Of a stretch of DNA of 64,000 nucleotides, positions 7,083 through 51,994 are shown in pieces. Numbering within the stretch: the stretch's first letter is position 1; every line of letters starts with the position of its first letter. Under the pieces are notes generated by a model. It saw only the letters and a list, made by a program, of their open reading frames with translations. It was not told the origin of the DNA and did not search any database. Position numbers and translations under genes: made by a program. The stretch comes from Candidatus Latescibacterota bacterium (GTDB lineage: Bacteria; Latescibacterota; UBA2968; UBA8231). The stretch is from the NCBI GenBank assembly GCA_965203355.1, contig OZ241889.1, positions 3,360,001-3,424,000 on the forward strand, read 5' to 3'.

Positions 7083-7119
7083 TTTAGGTATTCCCCATTC
7101 ACGACGAGGAGTAAGCACC

Positions 7120-18958: not shown

Positions 18959-18969
18959 CAGCCGAAGCC

Positions 18970-19230
18970 GAGGGAGTCCAGCTTTTTGATTTGGCAACAG
19001 ATCCCAGCGAGACCCGAGATGTATCGGAGGACCCGGCATACGCTTCAGTGGTAGCCGACATGAAAGCCCGGCTGCGGGCGGAACGCGAAAAAGCGGGCCT
19101 GACAGACGAAATAGAACGACAGATTTTTAATAGCGGAAACGTAACACACACGCGCAAACAGATGAATGCATTGCTGGCGATGGTACATGCCAATACCGCC
19201 GAGAACCAGCCCGCTTCTCGTCGGGGTTGA
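18970..19230 (+). pseudogene. C-terminal remnant of a sulfatase-family gene
   Basis: QLFDLATDPSETRDVSEDPAYASVVADMKARL is the typical sulfatase C-terminal motif. No N-terminus; an in-frame stop lies at 18940. Confidence 0.6.
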
Positions 19231-19307
19231 TAGGCTAGAACACAGAAGCCGGTGCGACATTTCCTTTCACCGTATATGTTCAGCCGTTTGTCTAACGAGG
19301 AGACGAT

Positions 19308-24390: not shown

Positions 24391-25758
24391 CTATTCGAGA
24401 CGCCGATTTTCTCCTGTAATTGCAATGGGAAACCACAGGAGTTGCAGGGCATCTTGTCGCACCTCGACGGAGAGGTCGCCCGGCGGTTCCGCGGTTTCAA
24501 TTGAGTACGAGCGGTGCAGGACCTTGGCTGGAGTCAATGAGGTAGTGTCTCGAACGGCCACTTTGCCATCCACCGACACTTCGATGACGACATTGGGCAT
24601 CTCGAGCGCGGGCGAAAGGGCGATGTTCAGCAACCCATCGTCTAAACTGCCGCGGACCGCGCCGACCTGCGAAGCCGCACTCATCCCCTTCGTTCCCCAG
24701 TAGCTATACATCCACTCCGTCCACGCGAGCGAGGCTCCGGGTGGGAGTGGCTGCGTCTCATCGGGAAAAAGTACCGACGTGCCACCCCACATCTCGACAT
24801 AGCCCTTGTTGGGCTGGCCGGAGCCCATGGGAATCCCGGTCGGATGGAAGCCGTAGGTCCATACATCGACCCCTGGGTTGAGGACGGGATCGAAGACGCG
24901 GACCACGCCCTCCTCAGCGTCGTGGGAGTAGGCGCTGTAATAGCCGGCCGTCAATCCGTCGGCCATGATATCGCCGGCCTTCCACCCTCGGATGTAGCGC
25001 AACGGGTTCTCGCTCCAGACCTGTGGACTCGGCCCTAGGTTTTTTTGCCAGCGGTCGGCGATCCGGATGCTCTTTGTGGGGATGATGAACTCGGTGTTGT
25101 CGGTCAGCTCGTTCTCACCGCCAGGAGTCCACATGGGATTGACCCAGTGGGCGAACTGAACGGTGTCGGCTCTTGGATTGTGAAGGCGGATCTGGGCCTC
25201 CAGTGCGGCTGAGCCTTGATGGACAGTCAGTCTGACTCGCTGGGTCAATCCTGTCAGCGGCTCCGTCGTTGCCATCGACATAGAAACCCGTTCTGGGTGA
25301 TCTTCCAAGATCTCCCACGTCCAGGGCAGCGCGAAGGTCGTGCCGTGTTCGTAGCCCGGAAGTGTGTACTCGATCCCGCCGATCCAGAGCCACCAGCCAG
25401 TGGGATTGTTTGCCCCGCCGGGGCGCACAATGTCGTTTTTCCACAGCGCGTCGTGGCTGGTCCGCTTGTCAATGAGGGAGTACACTCGTCCCATCTCCGG
25501 CAGCACCTCTACGCGCACATAGTCGGATTCGAGCACCACGCGCCTATGCTGCTTGTCGACGATGCGCGTCCAGTCGATGCGCTCGAAATTTAGATGGGGA
25601 AGTGGGTCGCCTTCGTCGTAGTAAATCGCCGGCTCGTAATCGACTTGAGGGATGTCGATGTGGTCGACGACAATGGATGTGGCGGCGCTTGGGGAAATTG
25701 CCGACAGGGCCAGAATCAGGGAGAGTACGAGCGGAAGAACTCGGCGTCGAGTCATCAT
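24391..25758 (-). CDS. Secreted DUF5107-like (galactose mutarotase-like fold) protein
   Basis: Signal peptide; VVLESDYVRVEVLPEMGRVYSLIDK, WIGGIEY, HWVN, VWTYG, YVEMWGG. Confidence 0.65.
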   Translation of the reverse strand: MMTRRRVLPLVLSLILALSAISPSAATSIVVDHIDIPQVDYEPAIYYDEGDPLPHLNFERIDWTRIVDKQHRRVVLESDYVRVEVLPEMGRVYSLIDKRTSHDALWKNDIVRPGGANNPTGWWLWIGGIEYTLPGYEHGTTFALPWTWEILEDHPERVSMSMATTEPLTGLTQRVRLTVHQGSAALEAQIRLHNPRADTVQFAHWVNPMWTPGGENELTDNTEFIIPTKSIRIADRWQKNLGPSPQVWSENPLRYIRGWKAGDIMADGLTAGYYSAYSHDAEEGVVRVFDPVLNPGVDVWTYGFHPTGIPMGSGQPNKGYVEMWGGTSVLFPDETQPLPPGASLAWTEWMYSYWGTKGMSAASQVGAVRGSLDDGLLNIALSPALEMPNVVIEVSVDGKVAVRDTTSLTPAKVLHRSYSIETAEPPGDLSVEVRQDALQLLWFPIAITGENRRLE

Positions 25759-27323
25759 TTCATCCTATGGCTATTCATCGCTGGTGTAGAGGACGGCCAG
25801 GTCTTGTTGCTGAATTTTGCGATGGCTTGGGCTGCCGCTGCCGAGTCGCCTGCCTGCCGGTACGCGAGCACGAGCCCCCGCTGTGCCGATGGCTGATCGG
25901 GATCTTGGGCTAGCGCTTGTTCGTATCGTTCGGCTGCGGTATGGGCATCGCCTTGTTGCAACTCGAGGTTTCCCAGCGCAATGAAAACATCGGCTGAATT
26001 CTCGGACAACTCCAGCGCCCGTTCGTACGCCTCTCGACTTAGGTCGATGTAGCCGCTAGTGGCATAGGCCGTGCCTAGGTTGTACCACGCCAAGCCATAG
26101 TCTGGCTTGAGATTCAGGGCTTGGCGGTACGCCGAAATCGCCTCGCTCGGGCGACCTAGTCGGATGTGGGCATTGCCGAGGTTCTGCCAGGCGCGGGCGT
26201 TGTCCGGCTGGAGCGACAAACCGTCGCGCAGGTGTCTAACGGCTCCCGCGTCGTGCCCGAGGCGAACGTAGAGGCGGGCGAGTTTGAAGTGTGTACTGGG
26301 ATTACGGCCCGGCTGGGCTAGCGTGCGCAGGTTCTCGATCTCAGCTATGTGCGGCTCAATTCGCCGATGGGTGGTGTGCTGTTCCTCGGCGTCCCGACTA
26401 CGACCTAGCTGGCGGTACGCGGAAGCCAACTGAAGACGAACATCGGGATGCACTGGGTCGAGTTCGAGAGCCTTCTCAAGAGCCGCGGCCGCTTCGACAT
26501 GCTTTTCCAACCGGGCTTGGGATATTCCCAGACCGATGTGCGCCTCCACTGAAGCGGGGTCGAGATTGACTGCTGTCGAAAATGCTTTGAGGGCCTGGTG
26601 GGCTCGTCCTACTTGTAGGAGGGCGCGGCCTACGGCTACCTCGTATCTGACGCTGTCTGGTGCCAAGGCGATGGCTCGCTGGAGGAGGTCCAAACTTTCC
26701 GCACAGCGACTTAGGTGTTCGCACTGGAGAGAACCCAAGGCGAAGATCGCCTCGTGAGACGTGGGCTCCAATTCCACCGCTTGCTCCAGCGAGGTATGGG
26801 CTGCCGCTACATCCCCCCGAGCCACCTGCACTACACCCATCAGCTTGTGCAGCGTTGAGCGGGCCGAATCGAGCGCGATGGCTTCGGCGAGTGCGAAGTG
26901 GGCGTTGTCGAGTTGTCCGACCCCGAGCCACGCCACCGATAGGCTCTCTAACGTCTCGGCATTGCGCTTGACCGCGACCGCGCGCTGCGCTAGGGCGAGT
27001 GCCGTGGTGTGATCGCGGATTCGGGCCAGAACCTCGCTGAGACCCATCAGGGCCCCCACGTGCAGACTATCCGACCGCAGCACCCCTTGGAACTGATCCA
27101 TTGACTGATCCACGTGCCCCAAGTCGAACAGTACGCGGGCAAGCGACGTCCGGGTCTCGGTATCTGTGGGGTGTTCGCGCAGTTGTTCTTCATACGTCAG
27201 CCGCAACCGTCCCAATTCGTCCGCTGTGGGCGGCGCGTCCGCAGCAGGGCGTTGGCTTTCGCACCCGACGAGCACCCCGATCAGGGCTAGGAACCACGCT
27301 TGTACTCTCACCGGGGCGTCCAT
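25755..27323 (-). CDS. Tetratricopeptide-repeat lipoprotein
   Basis: Lipobox VLVGC and many TPRs (AWQNLGNAH, AWYNLGTAY). The start overlaps the end of the upstream FG-GAP gene. Confidence 0.88.
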   Translation of the reverse strand: MDAPVRVQAWFLALIGVLVGCESQRPAADAPPTADELGRLRLTYEEQLREHPTDTETRTSLARVLFDLGHVDQSMDQFQGVLRSDSLHVGALMGLSEVLARIRDHTTALALAQRAVAVKRNAETLESLSVAWLGVGQLDNAHFALAEAIALDSARSTLHKLMGVVQVARGDVAAAHTSLEQAVELEPTSHEAIFALGSLQCEHLSRCAESLDLLQRAIALAPDSVRYEVAVGRALLQVGRAHQALKAFSTAVNLDPASVEAHIGLGISQARLEKHVEAAAALEKALELDPVHPDVRLQLASAYRQLGRSRDAEEQHTTHRRIEPHIAEIENLRTLAQPGRNPSTHFKLARLYVRLGHDAGAVRHLRDGLSLQPDNARAWQNLGNAHIRLGRPSEAISAYRQALNLKPDYGLAWYNLGTAYATSGYIDLSREAYERALELSENSADVFIALGNLELQQGDAHTAAERYEQALAQDPDQPSAQRGLVLAYRQAGDSAAAAQAIAKFSNKTWPSSTPAMNSHRMK

Positions 27324-29080
27324 GGCTCGCCTTCTACAATGCGCACAAAGTGCCCTGCCGACACGGGCCCCACGGTTTGCGATTCGCCCGCTGGCCAACG
27401 AGTCAGGATGCGGTCCACTGCGGTCCGGTGCCCGAGGCCAAAGTGTAGTCGCAGATCATTGTGAGACAGGTAACTGCTGCCCCCTCGCACCTCGGCCGTT
27501 TGCCGCAGGTCAGCGGAGAATACCGTGACGCGTGCCCCGATTCCACTGCGATTGCTTCGCGTACCCTCCACCTCGACAGAAATCCAGTTGGCGCGGTTGC
27601 CGCTGTCGTTTCTGAGCAGGTGCGGACGCTGATTGTTATTGGACACGAACAGGTCGACATCTCCGTCGTTGTCGTAGTCAGCCGCGGCTGAGCCGCGTCC
27701 TACGCCGGCTGAGAACGCCGTCAGACCACTCGCCGCGGTCACGTCGGTGAACGTGCCGTCGCGATTGTTGAGAAAGAGCTGGTCGTGCTGTGCATAGCGC
27801 GGGCCGGCGCTGTCGAGAATTTCGATGTTGGGCTCGACATGGCCGTTGGCGAGGAACAGATCGGGATACCCGTCGTTGTCGATATCGACGAAATCGGTCC
27901 CGAAGGTGAGCGTTTGATAGGTCGGCCCGCCGAGGCCGCTCGGTGCGGTGTGGTCTGCGAATTGACCCGCTCCGGCATTGTGCAGCAGTCGGCAGGGTTC
28001 CCACTGGAAGTTGCACACGCCTAGGTCGAGCCGCCCGTCGCGATCATAATCGGCCCAATCAGTGCCCATGCCCGCCTCCGGGACCCCATCGGGACTCGTC
28101 GAGACGCCGGCCGATACCCCGACTTCGGCGAATCGAGATCCGTCGTTGCGGAACAGGAAATTTGGCTCGTGATCGTTGGCGACATAGAGATCAAAGTCGC
28201 CGTCGTCATCGTAGTCGGCAAATCCCACGCCTAGCTGCCGACCCGCTTCGGTCCAGAGCCCTATCGAGTCGGTGATGTCCGTGAAACCGAGGTCGCCGTC
28301 GTTGCGGAACAGAGCCCCGGAGTCACCGGGATAGGCACCAGGGCCACAGTAGATCTGAATCAGTCCGCGATAGCATTCCGGGCGATCATCTCCGACGATC
28401 CGCACGTCGTTGGCGACGTACAAATCTAAATCACTGTCGAGATCGATGTCGGCGAAGGCCGTACTCGTCGATACTCGCCGATCGCCGGTCCCCGACCATT
28501 CGGTCACGTCTGCAAAGCGGCCATTGCCTAGATTTCGATAGAGCCGATTGGCCCCCCAGTTCGTGACATAGAGGTCCGCATGGCCATCGTTGTCGATGTC
28601 CCCAACGCCGACCCCCATGCCGAAGCTGGTGTCGGCGACCCCTGCTGCCGCTGCCCTATTGACGAAGGTCCCGTCGGTCTGATTCACGAATAGCGCGTTG
28701 GCGGGCAGGTGAGCGGTGAGGACGCCGGGGCTAGCAGCGCTGTTCACGACGTAGAGATCCGGGAAACCGTCGCCGTTGAAATCGGCAAATGCGGCACCTG
28801 AGCCATGGGTTTCGGGATAGTGGTAGGCCCCGGCCGCGCCATTGAAGTGGCGGAACTCGATCCCGGACTCGGCCGCGACCTCGCTGAATCGAGGGGAGGT
28901 AAGAGCCGATTCCTCCTCGGCACCACAGCCCGACAAAACGGGTGCTGTCACCAAAGCAGCTTGCAGTGCCAGACGGACTAGATAGGCCCTATTCGATTGG
29001 TCTTTGTCTGCGCAGCTATATCGCTGTTGTGTATTGTAATTCATAGGTTGGTCCGCCGAGCACCGATGATCCGAATCCAC
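27308..29080 (-). CDS. CRTAC1-like lipoprotein (FG-GAP repeats plus ASPIC/UnbV domain)
   Basis: Lipobox VLSGC, DFNGDGFPDL-type repeats, SSYLSHNDLRLHFGLG...RWP. The true start is probably downstream of 29080. Confidence 0.9.
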   Translation of the reverse strand: MDSDHRCSADQPMNYNTQQRYSCADKDQSNRAYLVRLALQAALVTAPVLSGCGAEEESALTSPRFSEVAAESGIEFRHFNGAAGAYHYPETHGSGAAFADFNGDGFPDLYVVNSAASPGVLTAHLPANALFVNQTDGTFVNRAAAAGVADTSFGMGVGVGDIDNDGHADLYVTNWGANRLYRNLGNGRFADVTEWSGTGDRRVSTSTAFADIDLDSDLDLYVANDVRIVGDDRPECYRGLIQIYCGPGAYPGDSGALFRNDGDLGFTDITDSIGLWTEAGRQLGVGFADYDDDGDFDLYVANDHEPNFLFRNDGSRFAEVGVSAGVSTSPDGVPEAGMGTDWADYDRDGRLDLGVCNFQWEPCRLLHNAGAGQFADHTAPSGLGGPTYQTLTFGTDFVDIDNDGYPDLFLANGHVEPNIEILDSAGPRYAQHDQLFLNNRDGTFTDVTAASGLTAFSAGVGRGSAAADYDNDGDVDLFVSNNNQRPHLLRNDSGNRANWISVEVEGTRSNRSGIGARVTVFSADLRQTAEVRGGSSYLSHNDLRLHFGLGHRTAVDRILTRWPAGESQTVGPVSAGHFVRIVEGEPWTPR

Positions 29081-29176
29081 GGCGATTCAAGTTACTTATC
29101 CGGCCAAGATAGAGTCAAGCGCGTGTAGGGATGTAGTCGCGTCTTGCGCTTGGCTGACTCACTAGTCGAAAGAGGC

Positions 29177-29205
29177 TTGAACTGCTGACTGCATTTTTAT
29201 ATAAT
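29177..29205 (+). promoter_or_regulatory. Putative sigma70 promoter of the 29332-46482 operon
   Basis: TTGAAC-17 bp-TATAAT. Confidence 0.6.
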
Positions 29206-29331
29206 GATCACTTCGCCAACCTGCATTAGGTTGATTCACAAGTTGCGTGGATGCTCACTTTTCCGCGCCAATCCTACCGTTTTCCTTCAAGCTGTAAGGG
29301 TGAAGAGAAGACACGAACGAGAGGAGCTCTC

Positions 29332-30225
29332 ATGCGTAAGAAAGCAGTTCTAGGGACCATGGTCCTCGGCGCTGTGCTGCTGGCAGGTTTCGCCAGGCCG
29401 GTGGCGGCATACGAAAACTGCAACGGCGTCGGCTATTTTGCCCTGCAAGTGCCCAATCCAGGATCCATGAACCCCGATGGCGATGGCAGCGATTGGGGTT
29501 GGTTCGATCCAGATTTCGTCGTCGGGCCCGATGAGTTGTGCGACGTGATCGGCGAAGGTGAGTTTCCATCGCGTAGCGACCTCGACATCGCGCACCACGT
29601 CGGCTGGACGCCAGAGCCGGACAATCGGCTCTATGTATTCACGCGCGTCCTCGACGACACGCTGAACGCCGACGTCACCGAACTGAACGATGGTTGGCAC
29701 GACGATGACCTCGAGCTGATTTTGGATCCGGATCACGGCGTGTGGAACGAGGCGCCTGATGCCCTCCGCACCGGACACCAGCAGTGGACCTTCCACTACG
29801 CCCGTCCCGGTGGTTACCCCCTCGTGTCCTTTTTGCGTTGGAACCAACCGGCGGAGATGCAGTGGGGCCCCGAGACCGGTGCTGTTGAAGGGGCCGTCTC
29901 GGTCTCTCCAGCGGGTGCCGGGCACTTGGCCACTGACGTGACGGTGAACTACGAAGTCCGCATGGAGGCCTACGATCCGTACATGCCGGATGGCCGCGAT
30001 GCAAGCGTCCGCTGGGTCTTCGAAGCCGGCCAGACGATCGGCATGTCCCTGAGCCTCAACGAGGCGGACGGTGGCGGCCGAACGCATCAGATTACGACGC
30101 ACATCCAAAATGGCGGGGCGCATAGCTCGGAATTCACCTCGGAATTCACCTTGCTAAGCACCGATGAGTACGCTACGGCCGTTGAGGCGAGCAGTTGGGG
30201 CGCAGTAAAGGCACTGATGCGGTAA
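29332..30225 (+). CDS. Secreted CBM9/DOMON-like protein with C-terminal TAVEASSWGAVK motif
   Basis: Signal peptide; DGDGSDW, GWTPEPDNRLY, WHDDDLELILDPDH, YEVR, GQTIG. Paralogue of 47856-48752. GAGGAG RBS. Confidence 0.6.
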   Translation: MRKKAVLGTMVLGAVLLAGFARPVAAYENCNGVGYFALQVPNPGSMNPDGDGSDWGWFDPDFVVGPDELCDVIGEGEFPSRSDLDIAHHVGWTPEPDNRLYVFTRVLDDTLNADVTELNDGWHDDDLELILDPDHGVWNEAPDALRTGHQQWTFHYARPGGYPLVSFLRWNQPAEMQWGPETGAVEGAVSVSPAGAGHLATDVTVNYEVRMEAYDPYMPDGRDASVRWVFEAGQTIGMSLSLNEADGGGRTHQITTHIQNGGAHSSEFTSEFTLLSTDEYATAVEASSWGAVKALMR

Positions 30226-30254
30226 GCAAAAAAGACGCCGCTATCTTTCATCTG

Positions 30255-30287
30255 AGGGGGGAGGACTGTTCTCCCCCCTTAACTTTC
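30255..30287 (+). terminator. Strong hairpin after the first operon gene (partial terminator or stabiliser)
   Basis: Stem AGGGGGGAG...CTCCCCCCT with a weak U tail (TTAACTTT). Confidence 0.55.
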
Positions 30288-30321
30288 TAACGCATATCCG
30301 ATCCTGCGCGGAGAGGTTGTT

Positions 30322-31044
30322 TTGAGACCGCTTTTTAGCTGCTTATTGATTTTGGTTGCGTTCGGCTGTGGGCGCTATTTTCCGGGGTCTCTCCAGCCCC
30401 GACCTAGTTCCGAACAGGGCGAACACATGGTGGTCCACGACGACGGATCAGTGGCCTATGTATTCGAGAGGCTCGATATCGCGATTCGACCGATGACGGA
30501 CGCGGAACTCAATCGCAGTTTCGCCACAAGGTCGGCCGACGGCCCCCTATCTACCAATCCCTTCACATTCGGTGATTGGACCCCCCCGGGCGAGTCGTTT
30601 ACGCCCCAGCGATTTACCGTATTCCTCCTTCGGGTCAAGAACTATGCGTATCCGAAGGTCAAGATCGATCCCGCTAGGATCGAGTTGCGATCCGCCAGCG
30701 AGCGTTCCTACAAGCCCCTGACATTTCTCGAAATCAGTGAGTACTATCGAGCGTACGCGTTGGCTTGGGCCGGAAACTACTATGCGCGTATGCGCGAGCG
30801 CGAGGATCTCTTGCGTCTCCATATGTATGCTGACAAGATGATCTTCAGTGGCCAAGAGTACGAAGGCTTTCTCGTATTTCCGCCCATGCCACCAGACGTG
30901 ATCGAGTTGGCTGTCCACGTCGACGACGTTGCCATTCGTTTCAACTATGCTGATGAGCCCGTGGAGACCGTGGACCTGACCTACGGATTCCAACGCGAGG
31001 TCTTCAGGGGATACCAGCCACCCGCCACCGTCTCGGCACGCTGA
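30322..31044 (+). CDS. Hypothetical lipoprotein
   Basis: Lipobox VAFGC; NPFTFGDW, VKNYAYPKV, GFLVFPP. Confidence 0.7.
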   Translation: MRPLFSCLLILVAFGCGRYFPGSLQPRPSSEQGEHMVVHDDGSVAYVFERLDIAIRPMTDAELNRSFATRSADGPLSTNPFTFGDWTPPGESFTPQRFTVFLLRVKNYAYPKVKIDPARIELRSASERSYKPLTFLEISEYYRAYALAWAGNYYARMREREDLLRLHMYADKMIFSGQEYEGFLVFPPMPPDVIELAVHVDDVAIRFNYADEPVETVDLTYGFQREVFRGYQPPATVSAR

Positions 31045-31045
31045 C

Positions 31046-32929: not shown

Positions 32930-32952
32930 GAAAGTAGGCGAGAGGAGGATTT

Positions 32953-35022: not shown

Positions 35023-35029
35023 GGATTTA

Positions 35030-37381: not shown

Positions 37382-37443
37382 TAGTTTAGAAAGGTTGATT
37401 TAATGACGATACGCGGTGGGAAACTAACACGGGAGAGTTGGAC

Positions 37444-40080
37444 ATGAAGTGCAAATGGGTCGGTCCCATCTTAGCTGTTTTGCTACTGCAGGGGACGTCA
37501 GGTGGAGCAGTCGAAGTCGGTCTGTTCAATCCCTACATCACGGAAGGAGCCCGAATCAGTCCTGAGACGCTGGTTCCAACTTTGCGGAAGTGGTATCTGC
37601 CCCAAGCACTCTATTCACTATACGGCTGGCAGGGGAGTGCTTACACCAACTATGCTCGGGACCAGTACCGGCGCTATGTGAGAACCGAACTTGAAGGCGA
37701 CCGCTACTACGACCTCTACGGCAATTACTTCACCAAAGGCTGGAACATCTACAACTTCACGAATGAGTATCCGAGGGATTTCGGGAGCGGAATATGGAAA
37801 GATCCCAACTTCAGCCAGTGGTTCAATCGTCTCATCGTAGTCTCTGGAGCCAAGGGGCAGTTCCACACCGCTCTGACCATCGGCGAGGGCATTCGCTCCA
37901 CGATGACGCCGCTCACTTTCTCCAAACCATTGTTCGACGGGCTGCAATGGGACTTCCAGACCGATAAATACGGAGTGAGCATCTTGGCGGCGCGAGCCGA
38001 TTCGCCCGGGCGCGTGGCCGTCGCTGTCGACCAAGGAGCGGCGCGCCAAACGACTTTCACTCAATTACTCGGCTTGAATGGAAGCATGGCTGTCGGCGAT
38101 TTCGCTACATTGGGTGGAACCTATCTGACGACCTTTCACCAAAACTCGGCCCTCTCCCTCGACGAAAATTCGCTGCGTGGCGTCCTCGGCGGTCGCCTGA
38201 ATGCGGGAAATGTCCAGCGGCTGATCGTGCGACTAGCAGACGACTCACCAGAGGATGGCGTCGGCGGTGCCCTACTGCTCCGCGAGCGCATTTTCATCAA
38301 TGGCGTTGAGCATCCCGAGATCGACCCGATCATCGAAGGGGGGGTGGCGCGCGAGGGCCTGCTAGAGGCCAGTGGTTCCAATACGGTCACCCTGACGTAT
38401 AACATTGAGACTGATTTCCGGCCGGGCCCCGATGAGGCGATCACTGATTTCCGGGAGATTGAGCGCATCGAAATAGGGCTGGTCGTGGCCAACGACTATC
38501 TCGTAGAAGTCGCGTCGAACTTGCAAACCAACGCGGCGCTGGAGCCCGCCTTCCTGCCCGTCGCCCAAGCAGAGGGCAACGTCACGGATGCTTCTAACCA
38601 GCGATTCATCCGCTTTCAGTACGGGGTCCCGTCGAGCAACGAACTGCGAGGAGTGAATCTGGCGATTAGCGATGTGGGGGGGTTCAATCTCCGCTCTGAG
38701 TACGTGAGTAATCGGCGCAACCGACGGTTCCCCAACCAAACCATCCGCAGCAACCAAGCCCTCGCTCACGATGCGTCTGAGGCTTATTACGCTACGGCAT
38801 CGCAGATCGCGTACCCCTTCTTCGGCTACGGGGAACTGTTCAGCGTCGAGCCTGGGTACTCGACGTCTATGTTCATCCCGGACTCGCAAGGTTTCATTGA
38901 TTACGAAGACGAGAAGAATTATCTCTACGAGCTCATCGACGATAACGACGACCAAGATCGCTTTCCCGACTGGCAGCGTCGCGCCGTGAATCTGAGTGCC
39001 CTGTTTCCGAACCAGAATCAATTCCCCGACCGGGAGGTGTTTCCGGGCCTCGACGAGAACCAAGACTTCATCTCCGACTTCAATCAGAATCAGAACAACC
39101 AGCCTGACTACAGCGAGCCGTTCTTCCGCTACCACGTCGATCCGCCCGAGTTCCTTTTCGGCACGGACATGAACAACAATACCGTTGTAGATCGTTTCGA
39201 GAACGACACGGAACCGGATTATCCGTACAAGCGGGACCGCAAGGGATACAATCTCTACGTTGGCGTCGAACTGATGCCGAACAGCCGCCTCATGGTCGGG
39301 CGCTCGCGGATGGAACAACACTCCAGCGACCGTCGGGCCGCTTCCACCTACGGGCTGCTGACGCTGAAGAAGGAATATCCGCAGCGCAGCTTGTCGATTC
39401 AGTTGATGGAGTTCGTCCGCGCCGTCCAGGACGATATCGCCGACGATCTCATCCAGTGGGTGCAGCCAGCCTTCTCGCCCGGTACGATGCAGGACTTCAG
39501 CGATCCTTTGATCGCACAGGATACCTTTATCAACACGCTCTACCTACAGGTAGATTGGAATTCGTTCGTCACGACGCAGACAAAGCTCAAGTACGACGCC
39601 TACAATCAGCAGAGGGATGCGGCGGCGGGAACGCGGGATGAGCGGTTCTTGGGTCTAATCAACAAGGCCGATCGTCAATTCTGGGCAACGGAGACGGTGC
39701 TTTTGTGGCCTCAGTGGAAGCAGCGGTTTTCGTCCCGGACCCCGACCAACCCACGCGAGCGTAGTACGCGCGATCTGGCAGAGCTCTTCTTCTTGCTCGT
39801 CAGCTATAGCATCTCCCCGCAGATGACGCTCGGTTTTGGCACCGAGTACGAGCTTTTCAATAACCTGAAGAGCCGCCCGGACGGTGGTGCCGTTGACTAC
39901 CAAGACGACTTCAGCCGATTGACTTTGGCGTCGCAGTTTTCCAATCAGGCGGCGTATCTGGGCTACGAGTTGACCGCGAACATCGGCATACGGTGGACGC
40001 GACGCAGCGTTCGCGGAGAAGATGCCGACACGAACACCATGATCTTCGTGGACGTGTTTGCGGGCCTCGGAACCGATTGA
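37444..40080 (+). CDS. Large secreted protein, putative outer-membrane beta-barrel with acidic Ca-binding-like loops
   Basis: Signal peptide; aromatic-rich alternating strands in the C-terminal third; DDNDDQDRFPD / DENQDFISD / DMNNNTVVD motifs; ends IFVDVFAGLGTD. Confidence 0.6.
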   Translation: MKCKWVGPILAVLLLQGTSGGAVEVGLFNPYITEGARISPETLVPTLRKWYLPQALYSLYGWQGSAYTNYARDQYRRYVRTELEGDRYYDLYGNYFTKGWNIYNFTNEYPRDFGSGIWKDPNFSQWFNRLIVVSGAKGQFHTALTIGEGIRSTMTPLTFSKPLFDGLQWDFQTDKYGVSILAARADSPGRVAVAVDQGAARQTTFTQLLGLNGSMAVGDFATLGGTYLTTFHQNSALSLDENSLRGVLGGRLNAGNVQRLIVRLADDSPEDGVGGALLLRERIFINGVEHPEIDPIIEGGVAREGLLEASGSNTVTLTYNIETDFRPGPDEAITDFREIERIEIGLVVANDYLVEVASNLQTNAALEPAFLPVAQAEGNVTDASNQRFIRFQYGVPSSNELRGVNLAISDVGGFNLRSEYVSNRRNRRFPNQTIRSNQALAHDASEAYYATASQIAYPFFGYGELFSVEPGYSTSMFIPDSQGFIDYEDEKNYLYELIDDNDDQDRFPDWQRRAVNLSALFPNQNQFPDREVFPGLDENQDFISDFNQNQNNQPDYSEPFFRYHVDPPEFLFGTDMNNNTVVDRFENDTEPDYPYKRDRKGYNLYVGVELMPNSRLMVGRSRMEQHSSDRRAASTYGLLTLKKEYPQRSLSIQLMEFVRAVQDDIADDLIQWVQPAFSPGTMQDFSDPLIAQDTFINTLYLQVDWNSFVTTQTKLKYDAYNQQRDAAAGTRDERFLGLINKADRQFWATETVLLWPQWKQRFSSRTPTNPRERSTRDLAELFFLLVSYSISPQMTLGFGTEYELFNNLKSRPDGGAVDYQDDFSRLTLASQFSNQAAYLGYELTANIGIRWTRRSVRGEDADTNTMIFVDVFAGLGTD

Positions 40081-41687
40081 TGACGAGCATCTTGGTACGC
40101 GTCGTTATCTTGCTGACAGCGGGACTGCTGGCCTGCGGACAGGCCGAACAATACGAGCCGCAGCCTGTTGTCGTCGCCATCATTGACCGGGATACGATCG
40201 ATGTCGAGGCATACAACGAGATGGCGACGACGCTTTTCGCCTCTTCCCATCGCGGCCAAGACCCCGCCAGTCTCGACACGAGGCGTCAACTGCTAAATGC
40301 GATGATAGACAGACAGCTTCTGGTGCTGGAGGGACAACGCAGGAAGCTGGATGCAGCGCCTAAAATCGCAACGGCCCTTGGGCAGCGCGAGCGCAAACTC
40401 CTCTGGCGTGCGCTGTTCAACGCGGTCGCGGTCGACGCGGGGCTCGATACGTCAGGCATCCAGACCTTTGCTGTGGAAGAAGGCTTCACCGAAGAGGTGC
40501 TGCTCCAACACGTGATGCTGGCGAATGAGGCCGATGCGTGGAACGTCCTCGAGGCGCTCGATGCGGGCGAACCGATGGATGTGCTCGCGGTCGAACGTTC
40601 AACCCACCACGAGACCGGGGCCTTGGGAGGCTACTTCAGCTACATGTCTGTATCCGAGGTGCTCCCGGAGGTCAGAGAGCAGATTTTGTCGCTAGCACTT
40701 GGTCAAACCTACCCGGAGCCCCTGACTTCCCGCTACGGGATTCACGTGTTCCGTCTAATTGATCGGCGCCCCGCCGACCTGGCGAGTAGGTGGGATGCTG
40801 TGCTTGAGGAGTTCCGCGTAAGCGAGAGGAGCCGCGTCTTTGAGTCCTTCGCCGACAGCTTGGCGAATGCGCATGGCCTAGTCTGCGTGCCTGCGATCGA
40901 AGACCGCCTAGCATCGGATACGCTCTGTACTTGGGCGGATGGCCAGCTCTTGTCATCCAACGTCGACTGGGCCGCTGCCGAGGATGATCGGCAGCGTTGG
41001 TTGCGCATGAAGGCCCGGGATCAACTGGTCATTGAGGAAGCCAAGCGTCGTGGCATGGACCGCGAACTCGTGGTGCGCGATCAGGTCGAGGCGCTGAGGG
41101 AAGAAATGATGATCGACAGTCTCCAGCAGGTTGTCGTTGGCCGCATTGAGATATCGGATGCCGAAAAACGGGCGTACTACGAGGAACACCCTGAGTTGTA
41201 TGGCCCGCGTCCAACGGTTCGCGTGGCTGAGGTCCTCGTCGCGGATCGTACGCTGGCGCAACGACTCCGCGGCCAAGCAGAGGCGGGTGCCCCGGTCGAT
41301 TCCCTAGCGCGGGTACACAGCATTCGCGAAGTTACGAAAAAAAGAGGCGGGTCGATGTGGCTCGTCACGAGAGACAATCCGCTCTTAGGCGATCTCGCGC
41401 CCCTCGCGCTCGACTCGGAAGTGGGTACGCTCCTAGGCCCTCTCGAAGTACCTGGCGGGTATTCCGTTTTGCGCATCGCCGAAAAGAGCCAGACTCCAGC
41501 GCGACCCTATGAGGCCGTGGAACGGAACATTGAAGCCATTCTCCGTCTGCGCACCGAGCATCAAAAGATGGACTCGCTGCTCGTCCAACTCCGCGTGGAC
41601 TTCGCCGACGAGGTCGCGGTCCATGAAGACGCACTGGACTCCGTACTAACCGATTGGGAAGGTCGCGAAGATGATGCCCAAAATTGA
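40080..41687 (+). CDS. SurA/PrsA-like peptidyl-prolyl isomerase lipoprotein with two PpiC domains
   Basis: Lipobox LLAC, LNAMIDRQLL, LAVERS...GG, PLTSRYGIHVF, LARVHS...GG, GPLEVPGGYSVL. TGATG overlap with the upstream gene. Confidence 0.82.
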   Translation: MTSILVRVVILLTAGLLACGQAEQYEPQPVVVAIIDRDTIDVEAYNEMATTLFASSHRGQDPASLDTRRQLLNAMIDRQLLVLEGQRRKLDAAPKIATALGQRERKLLWRALFNAVAVDAGLDTSGIQTFAVEEGFTEEVLLQHVMLANEADAWNVLEALDAGEPMDVLAVERSTHHETGALGGYFSYMSVSEVLPEVREQILSLALGQTYPEPLTSRYGIHVFRLIDRRPADLASRWDAVLEEFRVSERSRVFESFADSLANAHGLVCVPAIEDRLASDTLCTWADGQLLSSNVDWAAAEDDRQRWLRMKARDQLVIEEAKRRGMDRELVVRDQVEALREEMMIDSLQQVVVGRIEISDAEKRAYYEEHPELYGPRPTVRVAEVLVADRTLAQRLRGQAEAGAPVDSLARVHSIREVTKKRGGSMWLVTRDNPLLGDLAPLALDSEVGTLLGPLEVPGGYSVLRIAEKSQTPARPYEAVERNIEAILRLRTEHQKMDSLLVQLRVDFADEVAVHEDALDSVLTDWEGREDDAQN

Positions 41688-41711
41688 AGAGTACTTGGCT
41701 TTGCAAATATC

Positions 41712-42932
41712 ATGCCCGTCGTTCTCGTCTTCTGCCTACTGAGTGCTTGCGAGCGGCTTGGGCCCGATCGACAGGCGGCTCGGCAGCCGGAAGCCGCCCG
41801 AGCCCTCCTCGACAGTGCGCTTGAGTACTCGGCTCGCGGTGAATCCACTGAAGCGATTCTACTGCTGCGACGGGCGGTACAGCTCGATCCACGGGATCCG
41901 GTCATCCACTACGATCTCGGCAACAATCTGGCGCGGCAGGGGCGTCTCAACCAAGCGGCCGCGTCGTACCAACAAGCGATAGCCCTCGAGCCTAATTACG
42001 CGGCCGCCCATTACAACCTAGCTTCTGTGCATTCCGCAGCGGGACGGCGCGAAGAGGCCGAAGAACGGATGGTGCGGGCGATTGAGGTCGATAGCGGCTA
42101 TCAGCCCGCCCACAAGGCTTTGGCGCAGTTGCGGGAACGGCGCGGCGACTACGACGGGGCCATTGAAGCCCTGGAGATTGCAGTGGGGATCCGTCCCGAC
42201 GACGTGGAGGCACGCAACCTACTGGGCTATCTGCTGGGGAAGCAGGGGCGACGGGATGCGGCCGCCGTGGTTTTGCAGAGAACGCTACAGATCGACTCGA
42301 CCCACGCAGACACTTGGGCACACTTAGGTGCGCTACAACTCGCCGCTAAGGATTTCGCGAGTGCGCGCCCGTATCTCGAGATGGCCGTTCAGTTCAATGC
42401 GCACCATACGAAGGCGCACTTCGATCTAGCCAACTGTCTGATGCGCTTGGGGCAGAAGGAGAGCGGGCGAAAGATGATGCGCCGGTTCGAGATGTTGAGA
42501 TCGATCGACGCGGATATTGTCAAGTTCCGCGAGGCGATCCGCCACGATCCCGCCGATCCGGCTCTGTATCGGGGATTGGCCCGCCTGTACGCGAGCGGGG
42601 GCGAGCCGGACAAAGCGATTCAGCTCTATCGGCAGGCTATCGCACGAGATGCCGAATTTGCCGCTGCCCACAACAACTTGGGAAACCTCCTGCTACGGCA
42701 GAATCGACCCGAAGAGGCGGCGCGGGCCTATCGAGCCGCTTTGCACGCCGACTCCACCTACGCCTTTGCCCACAATGGGATCGGCACCGTCAACTTACTC
42801 GCCGGGAATAGGACCGGTGCCCTGGAGGCCTTTGAGCGTGCCGTCGAATTAGACTCCGCGAACCAAACATTCGCCGACAACCTCAGATCGGTCCAGATAC
42901 TACAACACGCGGAGGAATCGCATGATCGCTGA
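41712..42932 (+). CDS. Tetratricopeptide-repeat lipoprotein
   Basis: Lipobox LSAC; TPRs IHYDLGNNL, AHYNLAS, AHNNLGNLL. Confidence 0.88.
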   Translation: MPVVLVFCLLSACERLGPDRQAARQPEAARALLDSALEYSARGESTEAILLLRRAVQLDPRDPVIHYDLGNNLARQGRLNQAAASYQQAIALEPNYAAAHYNLASVHSAAGRREEAEERMVRAIEVDSGYQPAHKALAQLRERRGDYDGAIEALEIAVGIRPDDVEARNLLGYLLGKQGRRDAAAVVLQRTLQIDSTHADTWAHLGALQLAAKDFASARPYLEMAVQFNAHHTKAHFDLANCLMRLGQKESGRKMMRRFEMLRSIDADIVKFREAIRHDPADPALYRGLARLYASGGEPDKAIQLYRQAIARDAEFAAAHNNLGNLLLRQNRPEEAARAYRAALHADSTYAFAHNGIGTVNLLAGNRTGALEAFERAVELDSANQTFADNLRSVQILQHAEESHDR

Positions 42933-43965
42933 ACGACCTCACATGAAGATCAGACCTATCGCCCTAGCTGCGATGATTTTGGCGCTGGTCGCGAGCAACG
43001 GGTGTGGACCGCAGGCCGCTGAATCCCCCGAAACCGATTCCGCGCCGTCGGGTGAGGAGGAGATCCGGTTGGGGTTTCTGGTGAAAATGCCGGAGGAACT
43101 GTGGTTTCAGAACGAATGGAGATTCGCCCAGCAGTGCGCCGACAAGTACGGATTTGAGCTAATAAAAATTGGCGTCCCAGACGGGGAGAAACTCCTCGCG
43201 GCCATTGACGTCCTCGCGGCCAAGGGAGCCCAGGGCTTTGTCGTTTGTACACCGGACGTTCGGCTGGGGCCAGCCGTGATGGCCAAAGCCGGTAGCCACA
43301 ACATGAAAGTGTTCACGGTGGACGATCAGTTCGTCGGCGCGGATGGCGAGTTTATGGACGTCCCTTACATGGGCATTTCAGCCGAGGAAATCGGGCGCCA
43401 AGTGGGGCGAGAACTCCACAAAGAGTTCGCCAATCGCGGCTGGCCGTTAGAGGAAACGGGGGCGCTTGGGATCGCATTCGACGAACTCGACACCGCACGC
43501 GACCGCATCGAGGGGACGATCGACGCACTGGTCGAGGCGGGCTTCCCGCGGGAGCGCATCTACCTAGGGGCGGAGAAGACCACCGACATTCCAGGGGCTT
43601 TCGATGCGGCCAACATCGTCCTGACCCAGTACCCATCGATCAAACGCTGGTTGGTGTTCTCGATTAATGACGAAGGGGTCCTTGGCGCAGTGCGCGCCCT
43701 AGAAGGGCGCGGGTTTGGCGCGGCCGAGACCATTGGTATTGGCATTGGTGCTGGTACGGGGCTGACCGAATTTGAGAAGGAAGAACCGACGGGGTATTTC
43801 GCCACCTGTATGATTAGCCCCCGCCGTCATGGGTACGAAACGACGGAATTGCTCTACAGATGGGTCAAGGAGGGTATTGCTCCGCCCGCCGACACGCGCA
43901 CTGCTGGCGTCATGGCCTACCGCGATGACTACAAAGAAGTCCAGATAAAGCTGGGGCTTGAGTAG
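42922..43965 (+). CDS. araF: L-arabinose ABC transporter substrate-binding protein
   Basis: LGFLVKMPEELWFQNEW, VPDGEK, GAQGFVVCTPDVRLGPA, TVDDQF, ELDTARDR, DIPGAFDAA closely follow AraF. Confidence 0.88.
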   Translation: MIAERPHMKIRPIALAAMILALVASNGCGPQAAESPETDSAPSGEEEIRLGFLVKMPEELWFQNEWRFAQQCADKYGFELIKIGVPDGEKLLAAIDVLAAKGAQGFVVCTPDVRLGPAVMAKAGSHNMKVFTVDDQFVGADGEFMDVPYMGISAEEIGRQVGRELHKEFANRGWPLEETGALGIAFDELDTARDRIEGTIDALVEAGFPRERIYLGAEKTTDIPGAFDAANIVLTQYPSIKRWLVFSINDEGVLGAVRALEGRGFGAAETIGIGIGAGTGLTEFEKEEPTGYFATCMISPRRHGYETTELLYRWVKEGIAPPADTRTAGVMAYRDDYKEVQIKLGLE

Positions 43966-45489
43966 ATGCCCGTGCCGGTCCCGGAACCCTCGGCGCCTCC
44001 GGCCGTTGAGTTTCACCGCGTCTCGAAGGCATTTCTAGGAGTTCGCGCCCTGGCGGACGTCTCGTTCGCGGTTTGCCCGGGGGAAGTTCGCGCCCTAATC
44101 GGCGAGAACGGGGCGGGAAAGTCCACGCTGCTGAAGATCTTGAGCGGGGTCTATCGGCCCGATGCCGGAAGCGTGGTTCTGGATGGGCGCGCCCGCGTTT
44201 TTCATTCGACGGCGGAAGCCTTGGACGCCGGCGTTGCCGTCATCCATCAGGAACTCCAACTCGTCCCCGAAATGGCTGTGGCCGAAAACCTCTACCTCGG
44301 CCATCTCCCCGCAAGACTCGGGGTCGTGGATCGCCGGCGTCTGCGCGAAGCCGCGCACCGCACCCTAGAACGTTTGGGTGAGGCCATTGACCCGGCCGTC
44401 AAAGTCGGTAGCCTGCCCATCGCGCAACGGCAGATGGTCGAGATCGCCAAAGCCCTGACTCGCGGTGCGCGGGTGTTGGCTTTGGACGAACCCACTAGCA
44501 GCCTTTCCGCCCGAGAAGTGGAACGCCTCTTTGCGACCGTGGCCGAACTCAAGCGCAATGGCTGTGCCGTACTCTACGTCAGCCACCGCATGGACGAACT
44601 GTTCCGCGTGTGCGATTCCGCGACAGTCCTCCGCGACGGTCGCCATGTTGAGACGTTTCACTCTTTGGCAGGAGTATCCCACGACCTGCTAGTCAACCGC
44701 ATGGTCGGCCGCGATATTGCCGATGTCTTCGACTATCGATCTAGTATGCAGCAAGAGACTGCGCTGGAAGTTGTGGGGGTAGAGGGGCCGGGGCTTTCGC
44801 GGCCGGCCTCTTTCGCTGTCGCGAAAGGCGAGATCGTCGGCCTATTTGGGTTGATCGGTGCGGGCCGCAGCGAGTTGCTGCGCTTGGTGTTTGGCGCGGA
44901 ACCCATGCGGGCTGGCGTGGTAAAAGTTTGCGAGCGGCAAATCCCGAGCTCTTCCCCGCACGACTCGATCCGCTCGGGCGTGGCTTTTTGCCCAGAAGAC
45001 CGCAAAAAGGACGGCATCGTGCCCACAGCGTCCGTGCTTGAGAACCTGAACCTCGTCGCCCGGGGTCGCATGGCCCGGCTCGGCTTTGTCGTCAACCATG
45101 TTTGGGAGAGACGCAACGCCCATGATCAGATTAAGCGACTTGGGATCCGCACCCCGTCGGTGGCGCAGAAGATCGTCAACTTGTCTGGCGGAAATCAGCA
45201 AAAAACCATTCTCGCACGGTGGCTGTCTGAGGACGTCAAGGTGCTGCTGCTGGACGAGCCTACGCGCGGTGTGGATGTCGGTGCCAAGAGCGAGATCTAC
45301 GCCATTATCCGCGATCTGGCTGAGCGCGGGGTGGGGGTGGTGTTGGCATCCAGCGATCTCCCGGAAGCCCTCGGCGTGGCGGATCGTTTGCTGGTGATGC
45401 GCGAAGGTGCCATCGTAGCCGCCATGGCCCGCGGCCAAGCCGATGAGGCAGCGGTCCTGCGGTTGGCACTGCCGGTGTCTCCTTCTTAA
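43966..45489 (+). CDS. araG: L-arabinose ABC transporter ATP-binding protein
   Basis: Two ABC domains; GENGAGKSTLLKILSG, QELQLVPEM.VAEN, CPEDRK, LSGGNQQK..LARWLSE. Confidence 0.88.
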   Translation: MPVPVPEPSAPPAVEFHRVSKAFLGVRALADVSFAVCPGEVRALIGENGAGKSTLLKILSGVYRPDAGSVVLDGRARVFHSTAEALDAGVAVIHQELQLVPEMAVAENLYLGHLPARLGVVDRRRLREAAHRTLERLGEAIDPAVKVGSLPIAQRQMVEIAKALTRGARVLALDEPTSSLSAREVERLFATVAELKRNGCAVLYVSHRMDELFRVCDSATVLRDGRHVETFHSLAGVSHDLLVNRMVGRDIADVFDYRSSMQQETALEVVGVEGPGLSRPASFAVAKGEIVGLFGLIGAGRSELLRLVFGAEPMRAGVVKVCERQIPSSSPHDSIRSGVAFCPEDRKKDGIVPTASVLENLNLVARGRMARLGFVVNHVWERRNAHDQIKRLGIRTPSVAQKIVNLSGGNQQKTILARWLSEDVKVLLLDEPTRGVDVGAKSEIYAIIRDLAERGVGVVLASSDLPEALGVADRLLVMREGAIVAAMARGQADEAAVLRLALPVSPS

Positions 45490-45513
45490 ACCCGGCTGAC
45501 AGAGGAAAGAACG

Positions 45514-46482
45514 ATGACGAAATCTACGAACTCGCCACCAACTTCCCCCGGCGCCATGGCCCTTCTCTGGGAGAGCACAGGCATGCTGGTGGTTTTCGCT
45601 GTGCTGTTTGTAGCATGCTCGCTGTTTGTCGAGGACTTTTTCTCGTGGGTGAACGTGAAGGGTTTGGCGTTGGCGGTGTCGCAAATCGGCATGGTTGGAT
45701 GCACGATGCTGTTCTGTTTGGCGTCGGGGGATTTCGATTTGTCAGTCGGCTCGGTCGTGGCTTGCGCGGGAGTCGTGGCGGCGGTTGTGACCAACGCGAT
45801 GGACAGTGTCCTGTTGGGCATGTTGGCAGGCGTGTTGATCGGTGGCACCGTCGGGCTTTGCAACGGCGTTGTGATCGCGCGATTTCGCATCAACGCGTTG
45901 ATCGCGACGCTGGCGACGATGCAGATCGTACGCGGTTTGGGCTTCATCATCTCAGGGGGCCGGGCTGTCGGTGTGGCCGATTCGGGATTCTTCGCCTTGG
46001 GTGCGTCGTCGTTGCTGGGCGTCCCGACGCCGGTCTGGATTGCGTTGGTATGCTTCGTGGTATTTGGGTTTTTGCTCCAGCGGACCACCTTTGGCCGCAA
46101 TACTTTGGCCATTGGCGGCAACAAAGAGGCCGCCCGGCTCTCTGGTATCCCGGTGGCGCGGCTCAAGACGATCATCTTCAGTGTACAGGGTCTGATGGCT
46201 GGGTTCGCGGGGGTGGTCTTGGCCTCGCGCATGACCAGCGGCCAGCCGAAGCCGCCTGAGATGTTCGAACTCCAAGTCATCTCGGCCTGCGTTTTGGGTG
46301 GGGTGTCCTTGACTGGCGGCGTGGGATCAATCGGCTGCGTCATAGCCGGCGTCCTCATCATGGGCGTGGTTGAGAACGCGCTGAATCTGCTCAACGTCCC
46401 GACCTTCTATCAGAACGTGGTTCGGGGTTTCATCCTATTGGTCGCCGTGATGCTCGATCAACTCAAAAATCGCGCCCGCTGA
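45514..46482 (+). CDS. araH: L-arabinose ABC transporter permease
   Basis: GMLVVFAVLF, MLFCLASGDFDLSV, TTFGRNTLAIGGN, ASRMTSGQP, ISACVLGGVSL. Confidence 0.9.
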   Translation: MTKSTNSPPTSPGAMALLWESTGMLVVFAVLFVACSLFVEDFFSWVNVKGLALAVSQIGMVGCTMLFCLASGDFDLSVGSVVACAGVVAAVVTNAMDSVLLGMLAGVLIGGTVGLCNGVVIARFRINALIATLATMQIVRGLGFIISGGRAVGVADSGFFALGASSLLGVPTPVWIALVCFVVFGFLLQRTTFGRNTLAIGGNKEAARLSGIPVARLKTIIFSVQGLMAGFAGVVLASRMTSGQPKPPEMFELQVISACVLGGVSLTGGVGSIGCVIAGVLIMGVVENALNLLNVPTFYQNVVRGFILLVAVMLDQLKNRAR

Positions 46483-46574
46483 CGAGTTTGACCGCTCGGC
46501 GCGTTCCAACTTTCTTTTTGGCCTTCCTCAGCGACAACCCTGTATCCTCGCTAGATAACGACAAGGAGCGCGAA

Positions 46575-47726: not shown

Positions 47727-47855
47727 TAGTGGCCACTGATTAGCGTGGAGAGCAAAGATAGTACAATATAATCGGGGGACATTGCGTCCCATTAACCAAG
47801 GTCGCCTATGCACAGGCGATTCGCACCTAAAAGCAAGCCTAAAGGAGGTGCTTTT

Positions 47856-48752: not shown

Positions 48753-48764
48753 GTTTTCAGCGTT

Positions 48765-48811
48765 ACCCCCTGCGAGAGAGGGAGTACTTCTCTCACAGGG
48801 GGTGTATTTTT
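48765..48811 (+). terminator. Rho-independent terminator
   Basis: Stem ACCCCCTGCGAGAGAG...TTCTCTCACAGGGGGT followed by GTATTTTT. Confidence 0.7.
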
Positions 48812-48832
48812 GGGTAGGTACTCGAAACCAGC

Positions 48833-51130: not shown

Positions 51131-51132
51131 GC

Positions 51133-51990: not shown

Positions 51991-51994
51991 GGGT

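Follow-up and report, generated by a model that had tools for sequence, protein, structure and literature searches.

Why would a bacterium carry, dozens of times over, the same set of envelope genes around a large predicted outer-membrane barrel that has no named relative? The question is raised by a gene cluster of a Candidatus Latescibacterota bacterium, which occupies positions 24391-46482 and some adjoining sequence in a stretch of 64,000 nucleotides (nt) of contig OZ241889.1; this whole stretch is called the window below, and all coordinates refer to it. A first-pass annotation had proposed that the cluster encodes a self-contained outer-membrane machine, made of a barrel, a chaperone, three related subunits and a binding protein, and coupled to pentose uptake through the inner membrane. 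We find that this region represents one of many copies of a Latescibacterota cassette, which is repeated dozens of times per genome. The barrel belongs to a family that appears undescribed, and the three related subunits carry C-terminal tails of a type known from type IX secretion (T9SS).

A gene set repeated across Latescibacterota

All genes previously listed for 24391-46482 were found in their places in the map of open reading frames (ORFs) and by Pfam. They form two divergent runs, one leading outward from 29080 on the minus strand and the other starting at 29251 on the plus strand. The cassette parts among them are as follows (scores in bits; signal peptides and lipoboxes were called by eye from the N-termini).

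25755-27398, minus strand: lipoprotein with tetratricopeptide repeats (TPR), a recurring cassette part (Pfam TPR families; lipobox LVGC)
27308-29080, minus strand: FG-GAP / UnbV-ASPIC (CRTAC1-like) beta-propeller lipoprotein, a recurring part (Pfam 149.6 and 68.8; lipobox LSGC)
29251-30225, plus strand: secreted CBM9-like protein, likely start 29332 (Pfam CBM9_1 20.4, cut-off 23.4)
30322-31044, plus strand: lipoprotein of 240 amino acids (aa), unnamed family (lipobox Cys invariant in 16 of 16 aligned relatives)
31046-32929, plus strand: paralogue A (ParA), 627 aa (F5_F8_type_C 23.1; TIGR04183 Por_Secre_tail 24.3, cut-off 23)
32953-35022, plus strand: paralogue B (ParB), 689 aa (CHU_C 28.7 and FlgD_ig 27.0, cut-off 27 for each)
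35030-37381, plus strand: paralogue C (ParC), 783 aa (PF22633 28.9, cut-off 27.8; CHU_C 26.6, cut-off 27)
37438-40080, plus strand: predicted outer-membrane beta-barrel, 880 aa (AlphaFold2 model and fold matches)
40080-41687, plus strand: lipoprotein with two parvulin-type peptidyl-prolyl isomerase (PPIase) domains (Rotamase_2 67.5, Rotamase 42.2; lipobox LLAC)
41712-42932, plus strand: TPR lipoprotein (Pfam TPR families; lipobox LSAC)

The plus-strand genes had been taken for an operon, and they do form a tight co-directional run, in which twelve genes follow one another from 29251, the spacing varying between an overlap of 11 nt and a gap of 96 nt. The limits first assigned were too short at both ends, since the co-directional run passes 46482 and extends to about 51990, and the divergent minus run extends beyond a DUF5107 gene to a gene for a DUF6785/DUF6784 protein at 21154-23052. 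A promoter and terminator scan of 34000-53900, itself a weak one, gave no clear internal terminator.

Related loci were collected by scanning species-representative genomes with the barrel. Of the coding stretches confirmed in this way, at least 551 in number, the best 80 loci were kept. They come mostly from Latescibacterota, with some from Gemmatimonadota-labelled bins and one from a Planctomycetota-labelled bin. When all ORFs of these loci were compared with the window proteins by blastp, the same part set recurred, in several gene orders. For the 52 loci with full 10-kb flanks the parts were counted with family hidden Markov models (HMMs), and these counts are not independent. Par genes were found in 51 of the 52 (two or more in 50), the 240-aa lipoprotein family and the TPR gene in 46 each, the CBM9-like gene in 44, the FG-GAP/UnbV gene in 38, the PPIase gene in 34 and the DUF6785 gene in 15 (18 of the 80 related loci by clustering). 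No ORF of the 52 loci matched the DUF5107 HMM.

An out-of-sample test case is the complete 6.4-Mb chromosome of a relative (G001), which carries a barrel orthologue of 95% identity. Its 51 match pieces merge into 38 barrels of full length, spread over about 30 loci, and 11.5% of the chromosome is within 10 kb of a barrel. In 20 of its more diverged loci the barrel and Par genes were present without exception (20/20), often with two barrels in tandem, and were accompanied by the PPIase in 17, the CBM9-like protein in 14, TPR in 13, DUF6785 in 6, FG-GAP in 5 and the lipoprotein in 4. Many diverged cassettes of G001 (in loci L087, L089-L091 and L094-L099) contain such a tandem pair, usually without the 240-aa lipoprotein. 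Across the phylum, the barrel is present in 94 of 150 sampled genomes.

The genes therefore make up a conserved unit, as its recurrence in most of the full-flank loci and in all 20 diverged loci of G001 indicates. A search for conserved gene order across relatives had been proposed; it is the gene set that is conserved, in orders of several forms. Moreover, the FG-GAP/UnbV and TPR genes of the minus run lie where they had been placed, but they are not mere neighbours of the operon, as both recur as cassette parts. The identity of a part to its window copy rises with barrel identity (ParC, rho = 0.87; ParA, rho = 0.71; the loci are not independent points), the pattern that joint duplication of whole cassettes would give. 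Among the parts, the PPIase has diverged the most, with 22-32% identity.

A TPR and FG-GAP/UnbV gene pair is also found a second time in the window, at 12011-15440, where no barrel is nearby.

The 880-aa barrel

Neither Pfam nor NCBIfam gives a match for the 880-aa protein at E <= 0.01, Plug and TonB-receptor domains in Pfam included, and a profile built from 31 of its relatives found no PDB chain at E <= 1. Its AlphaFold2 model (pLDDT 69.9) is all-beta, with long hairpins and about 25 long strands visible, and predicts a roughly 26-strand outer-membrane barrel, the strand count being read from the secondary-structure string alone. Fold searches with this model returned large outer-membrane barrels only, none of them clearly ahead: MtrB (E = 6.6e-8), SlpA (Z = 14.8, 402 aligned residues), LptD and porins. 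Ushers were also matched (Z = 12.7 and 11.8, with 312-316 residues aligned), no better than porins, and the TM-scores of the matches were low (0.25-0.33). The earlier suggestion of a large barrel is thus in line with the predicted structure.

At E <= 0.001 the family has 688 representative relatives, which are annotated as 'hypothetical protein' wherever a name is given. A Pfam scan of ten distant relatives gave one sub-threshold match to SlpA_C (16.8 bits) and nothing else. By these sequence searches, the barrel represents a family without any Pfam, NCBIfam or PDB relative that is so far undescribed.

Among 31 paralogues, the most conserved stretches are those in which the model has its lowest confidence, at residues of about 41-100, near the N-terminus, and about 501-600. 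The latter is rich in Asp and Asn and contains EF-hand-like DxNxNxxIxxxE loops. Such conservation suggests a shared partner or a calcium site, and by strand parity, counted from the C-terminus in the secondary-structure string of the model, the Asp/Asn-rich stretch would face outward.

Par proteins and their T9SS-type tails

ParA, ParB and ParC are true paralogues, with pairwise identities of 27, 24 and 25% (E = 5e-44, 8e-22 and 3e-16), the value for ParA and ParB being 27%. They had been described as 'FlgD-tailed', and their tails match models of T9SS sorting domains (TIGR04183, CHU_C). The matches reach the last residues, at the extreme C-terminus, in all three proteins. ParA combines a discoidin domain and beta-sandwich domains with a T9SS-type C-terminal domain (CTD), and ParC has a duplicated discoidin region before its T9SS-type CTD, although its CHU_C score is just under the cut-off. 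The AlphaFold2 model of ParB (pLDDT 83.5) is all-beta, with four beta-sandwich domains and no enzyme fold. Its fold matches are non-catalytic arrays of Ig-like or lectin domains, and its tail matches FlgD Ig-like domains, which are also all that a PDB profile search with ParB returned. We predict from these models that the Par proteins are non-catalytic beta-sandwich and discoidin surface proteins of a sugar-binding type.

Core genes of the T9SS are present in close relatives. SprA and PorU exceed the curated cut-offs in 3/3 close relative genomes, and a PorV-like gene adjoins PorU in close relatives (151 bits, below the cut-off of 250). The proposed check for T9SS core genes thus covers close relatives, and their genes, with the tails of the Par proteins, make a self-contained machine improbable. 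In the phylum sample, SprA was found in 145/150 genomes at E <= 1e-10 and in 144/150 over its cut-off; being nearly universal, its co-occurrence with the barrel is uninformative. Four barrel-positive genomes have no SprA match, and three of these have PorU above the cut-off. The CHU_C model matches 144 stretches of G001 (E <= 0.001), and 79 of the 144 lie within 10 kb of a barrel, compared with the 11.5% of the genome that is so placed.

CBM9-like protein, 240-aa lipoprotein and PPIase

The family profile of the CBM9-like protein matches the CBM9 module of Thermotoga maritima Xyn10A (1i82_A; E = 3.5e-6, 30.1 bits). By this similarity the protein is related to characterised CBM9 modules, and sugar binding is predicted. 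Within the last 15 or so residues these proteins share a motif, TAVE-xx-[ST]W[GA]x[IV]K, which is present in 63 of 68 family members and in 8 of 3055 other ORFs. This TAVE..SWGxIK-type ending may serve for docking or sorting, with the TPR proteins of the cassette as one conceivable partner.

The 240-aa lipoprotein gave no Pfam or NCBIfam match, and a PDB profile search with it returned nothing meaningful (best E = 0.23). In the Protein Atlas it falls among unnamed lipoprotein clusters, with DUF4352, LssY_C and DUF5067 as weak leads at 0.76-0.81.

As regards the isomerase, a dedicated 'SurA-like' PPIase had been assumed. The cassette does have its own two-parvulin PPIase, but models of the EpsD/PrsA type are closer to it (72 bits) than SurA (15.8 bits). 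A link to the PEP-CTERM/EpsD system was considered and rejected, with EpsD and PrsT scores far below their cut-offs and no exosortase found. A Slam-type system was likewise rejected, its support consisting of promiscuous TPR matches alone.

Importers and other neighbouring genes

Around the cassette parts, the two runs contain importer genes and other cargo.

21154-23052, minus strand: polytopic membrane protein with DUF6785 and DUF6784, last gene of the minus run (Pfam 295.5 and 70.9)
23428-24255, minus strand: short-chain dehydrogenase, locus-specific cargo (Pfam adh_short_C2 200)
24391-25758, minus strand: secreted DUF5107 protein, locus-specific (Pfam 60.1; signal peptide by eye)
42922-43965, plus strand: Peripla_BP_1 binding lipoprotein (Pfam 136.9)
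43966-45489, plus strand: AraG-type ATPase (NCBIfam AraG 738.7, cut-off 689)
45514-46482, plus strand: AraH-type permease (NCBIfam AraH 492.8, cut-off 378)
46488-47726, plus strand: Gfo/Idh/MocA oxidoreductase (Pfam), kept downstream in 9/9 orthologous loci
47808-48752, plus strand: second secreted CBM9-like protein with the same C-terminal motif (Pfam 17.2; family HMM 83)
48833-51990, plus strand: second sugar ABC system, a CUT1 binding protein-permease fusion followed by a second permease (Pfam; NCBIfam NgcE-like 226, below cut-off)

The binding-protein gene overlaps the TPR gene of the cassette by 11 nt (region 42922-42932). It had been named, with its two successors, as araFGH. AraG and AraH are equivalogs over their cut-offs, but the binding protein reached no AraF model, its best NCBIfam match being RbsB at 19.8 bits against a cut-off of 337; without an AraF match arabinose is no more than a candidate substrate of the ABC system.

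In nine orthologous loci, defined by 92-95% barrel identity, the AraGH-type ABC genes are intact in five, fragmentary in one (L062) and absent from three (L005, L007 and L008), in which the TPR gene is directly followed by the oxidoreductase. The importer thus amounts to a 3.5-kb insertion or deletion among orthologous loci, and is a variable add-on rather than part of the cassette core. In L062 (15853-18480) the ABC genes are in pieces, with a 109-aa binding protein, a two-part ATPase and a 119-aa permease, which may reflect gene decay or assembly errors.

Paralogous cassettes adjoin CUT1 binding proteins and permeases, MFS transporters, or DUF6785/DUF6784 genes, and four kinds of importer genes recur next to cassettes. 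The linked cargo therefore varies between loci, a point that had been put forward for checking, and the presumed coupling to pentose uptake is not a fixed one. With about 10-12 hydrophobic segments, the DUF6785/DUF6784 protein is a candidate inner-membrane importer. Frequent neighbours of cassettes also include xylose-isomerase-like TIM barrels, DHDPS-family enzymes, Gfo oxidoreductases, enolase-superfamily enzymes, sulfatases and PhyH dioxygenases.

Other parts of the window contain related genes. A second DUF6785/DUF6784 gene stands first in what looks like an operon, together with genes for an aldo-keto reductase and a GH116 enzyme of beta-glucosidase type (4097-9603), an arrangement which hints that this uncharacterised family may import glycosides. 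A sulfatase, a PhyH dioxygenase and a DUF3604 protein are encoded upstream of the cluster (16794-21124), and PhyH and sulfatase genes recur beside other cassettes too. The Pfam search of 24391-46482 found neither a TonB receptor nor a glycoside hydrolase, in agreement with the first-pass annotation, the GH116 gene (7060-9603) being 20 kb away. At 495-1980, a C-terminal fragment of a TonB-dependent receptor stands beside an IS4/5-type transposase and is probably what is left of a disrupted receptor gene. Finally, a single 666-aa ORF at 58486-60486 joins GPP34 (Golgi phosphoprotein 3) to a cytochrome P450, an unusual fusion.

Comparison with known systems

We found no published description of the cassette in the literature on the Latescibacteria envelope and uptake and on the domain families of the cassette, with supplementary files outside the scope of that search. 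Within this literature it matches no described system, and four kinds of systems offer partial likenesses.

The nearest appears to be the pairing of type B T9SS cargo with PorP/SprF barrels (SprB-SprF, PG1035-PorP). Here also, genes for CTD cargo adjoin the gene of a dedicated outer-membrane barrel, the lineage has T9SS core genes, and the cargo lacks catalytic domains and resembles adhesins or lectins. The barrels of the PorP/SprF family are much smaller than the 880-aa protein, and their Pfam model (PF11751) spans 273 positions. The cassette barrel, by contrast, has 880 aa and a predicted 26 or so strands, is about three times larger, and gave no PF11751 match; a search of G001 with this model also found none, although no control genome matched either. 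Passages of PMC12618676 and PMC9143113 describe type B cargo genes as linked to, and dependent on, their cognate PorP/SprF shuttles. The cassette differs from such pairs in having three paralogous cargo proteins per barrel, in adding the CBM9-like protein, the lipoprotein, the PPIase, FG-GAP and TPR proteins as fixed parts, and in its number, with about 30 loci in G001 as against the 12 type B substrates given for Flavobacterium johnsoniae in a passage of PMC12618676.

With the SusC/SusD polysaccharide utilization loci (PULs) of Bacteroidota the cassette shares a modular organisation in many copies, a large barrel, a lipoprotein, non-catalytic glycan-binding surface proteins (as predicted here) and variable downstream genes for uptake and catabolism. 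It differs in that its barrel lacks a Plug or TonB-receptor domain, there is no SusD, its surface proteins bear T9SS tails instead of lipoboxes, each cassette has its own PPIase, and frequency tallies of flanking families show no linked glycoside hydrolases. In the complete genome G001 no match to SusD (PF07980) was found, whereas a control genome did match, and 23 Plug-domain receptors exceed the cut-off, compared with the 38 barrels. The cluster had been called an alternative to Bacteroidota PULs, which is apt as far as the missing SusC/SusD features go, and probably is not in the sense of an enzyme-linked PUL, since the 25 most frequent flanking families include no glycoside hydrolase.

The extended T9SS translocon of F. 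johnsoniae, as presented in part of PMC10994853, likewise joins a large barrel (SprA) to a peptidyl-prolyl isomerase subunit and a TPR lipoprotein (SprE), and chaperone-usher systems resemble the cassette in barrel size and at the level of fold. Neither shows a sequence relation to it; the cassette barrel would have 26 strands compared with 36, and the cassette lacks a PorV-like carrier, a motor, a PapD-like chaperone and pilin subunits. No cassette protein has a Pfam match to usher, PapD or pilin families. Barrels of 26 to 30 strands that house a partner (MtrB, LptD-LptE, SlpA) are the best fold matches of the cassette barrel, which the lipoprotein encoded alongside it might likewise plug or cap. 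The TM-scores are low, however, and the cassette is without cytochromes or a context of lipopolysaccharide transport.

What the cassette may do

We tentatively favour, at a likelihood somewhat short of even, a carbohydrate-capture complex in which lectin-like proteins delivered by the T9SS are held by a cognate barrel and feed variable importers. The Par proteins would cross the inner membrane by Sec, fold with help of the parvulin lipoprotein of the cassette, and leave through the T9SS translocon. At the surface, the barrel of about 26 strands would receive and hold them, by analogy with PorP/SprF and type B cargo in Bacteroidota. There a glycan or glycoside may be bound jointly by the Par proteins, the CBM9-like protein and the lipoprotein. 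Helper tasks in the periplasm would fall to the PPIase, TPR and FG-GAP lipoproteins. The barrel is perhaps also the passage across the outer membrane. A linked inner-membrane importer would then take up the solute, in this locus the AraGH-type ABC system with its own binding protein, followed by the second CUT1 system, and elsewhere a CUT1 ABC, MFS or DUF6785 protein. The gene set, its recurrence and copy number, and the T9SS genes of close relatives are observed directly, and the predicted folds and T9SS-type tails give the scheme its components; the route, the anchoring, the ligand and the passage are our inference. For the link to uptake, the 11-nt overlap of the TPR and binding-protein genes and the recurring importer genes are suggestive.

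Several points weigh against this capture complex. The CTD scores of the Par proteins are borderline (24.3/23, 28.7/27 and 26.6/27, as score and cut-off) and leave the choice between type A and type B undecided. The T9SS core genes are those found in relatives of the window's bacterium. As the barrel is no relative of PorP/SprF and is about three times larger, its role as an anchor is an analogy only. The ABC importer is dispensable in orthologous loci. A rough estimate gives about eight non-cassette genes per 20-kb flank, so a transporter nearby is not rare by chance. In the tallies of 139 and 36 flanking proteins, the 25 commonest families include no glycoside hydrolase. Many of the 80 loci derive from related genomes, and the family HMMs were built from those same loci, which makes the counts non-independent.

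The strongest competitor, though a rather unlikely one in our judgement, is a surface adhesin or coat, in which the complex serves only to attach the cell, be it to particles, to hosts or to other cells, or to form a surface layer, the transporters being unrelated to it. Discoidin, FG-GAP/CRTAC1-like and Ig-like domains are typical of adhesion, the barrel's fold is matched best by SlpA, a barrel that anchors the S-layer, and the known type B cargo with PorP/SprF partners consists of adhesins (according to a passage of PMC12618676). The loss of the ABC genes from orthologous loci and the absence of linked hydrolases from the flanking-family tallies fit this explanation as well. Nevertheless, about 30 loci per genome, as in G001, would be very many for adhesins, and the overlap of 11 nt couples the cassette to a binding protein and importer at the operon level here. 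Besides, CUT1, MFS and DUF6785 genes and enzymes of sugar-acid or inositol type recur beside cassettes, and the fixed parts include the CBM9-like protein, kin to a sugar-binding module.

Quite improbable, in our view, is that barrel, PPIase and TPR lipoprotein form a private translocon or insertase which exports the Par proteins without the general T9SS, as a small counterpart of SprA, its isomerase subunit and SprE or of a chaperone-usher pair. To our knowledge, every known barrel of at least 22 strands houses a plug or passenger. Ushers are among the fold matches of the barrel, and the PPIase diverges the most, as a client-specific chaperone might. The three kinds of parts are also the same as those of the extended translocon of F. 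johnsoniae (in the account given in part of PMC10994853). Yet it is models of T9SS sorting domains that the Par tails match, and the lineage has retained SprA at full size, together with PorU. Furthermore, the cassette parts show no relation in sequence to SprA, to ushers or to PapD-like chaperones, the usher fold scores do not exceed those of porins, and the cassette encodes no motor or energy source.

A chance neighbourhood of unrelated envelope genes is hardly credible, as the set recurs in at least 50 of the 52 full-flank loci and in 20/20 further loci of G001, the divergence of the parts correlates with that of the barrel, and CTD genes are enriched near barrels (79/144 against 11.5% of G001).

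Implications

In G001, 11.5% of the chromosome is within 10 kb of a barrel, and 38 barrels stand against 23 TonB-dependent receptors. All members nevertheless carry the annotation hypothetical, and no model of characterised function covers the barrel, the lipoprotein or the DUF6785 protein. An investment of such size across the phylum in an undescribed envelope machine marks a gap in our understanding of how a widespread uncultured phylum feeds or attaches. For the passage of the outer membrane, the 2015 Latescibacteria genome paper assumes non-specific porins, in the part dealing with it (PMC4454575). A bolder proposal, which we consider doubtful and offer as a speculation, is that the cassettes are the main nutrient-capture apparatus of Latescibacterota and a third import route through the outer membrane, beside porins and TonB-dependent/SusCD transporters. 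It would consist of a TonB-independent 26-strand barrel, loaded by the T9SS with exchangeable lectin subunits that dock on an invariant loop of calcium-binding type, each of the about 30 loci being tuned to a different glycan or glycoside and a different importer, DUF6785/DUF6784 included. If the barrel is indeed the partner of T9SS cargo, the principle of the cargo shuttle would extend beyond Bacteroidota and PorP/SprF, and the cassettes would provide a repeated, well-defined test case for the way in which sorting domains reach their destination. If the barrel conducts solutes, it would represent a new import route across the outer membrane.

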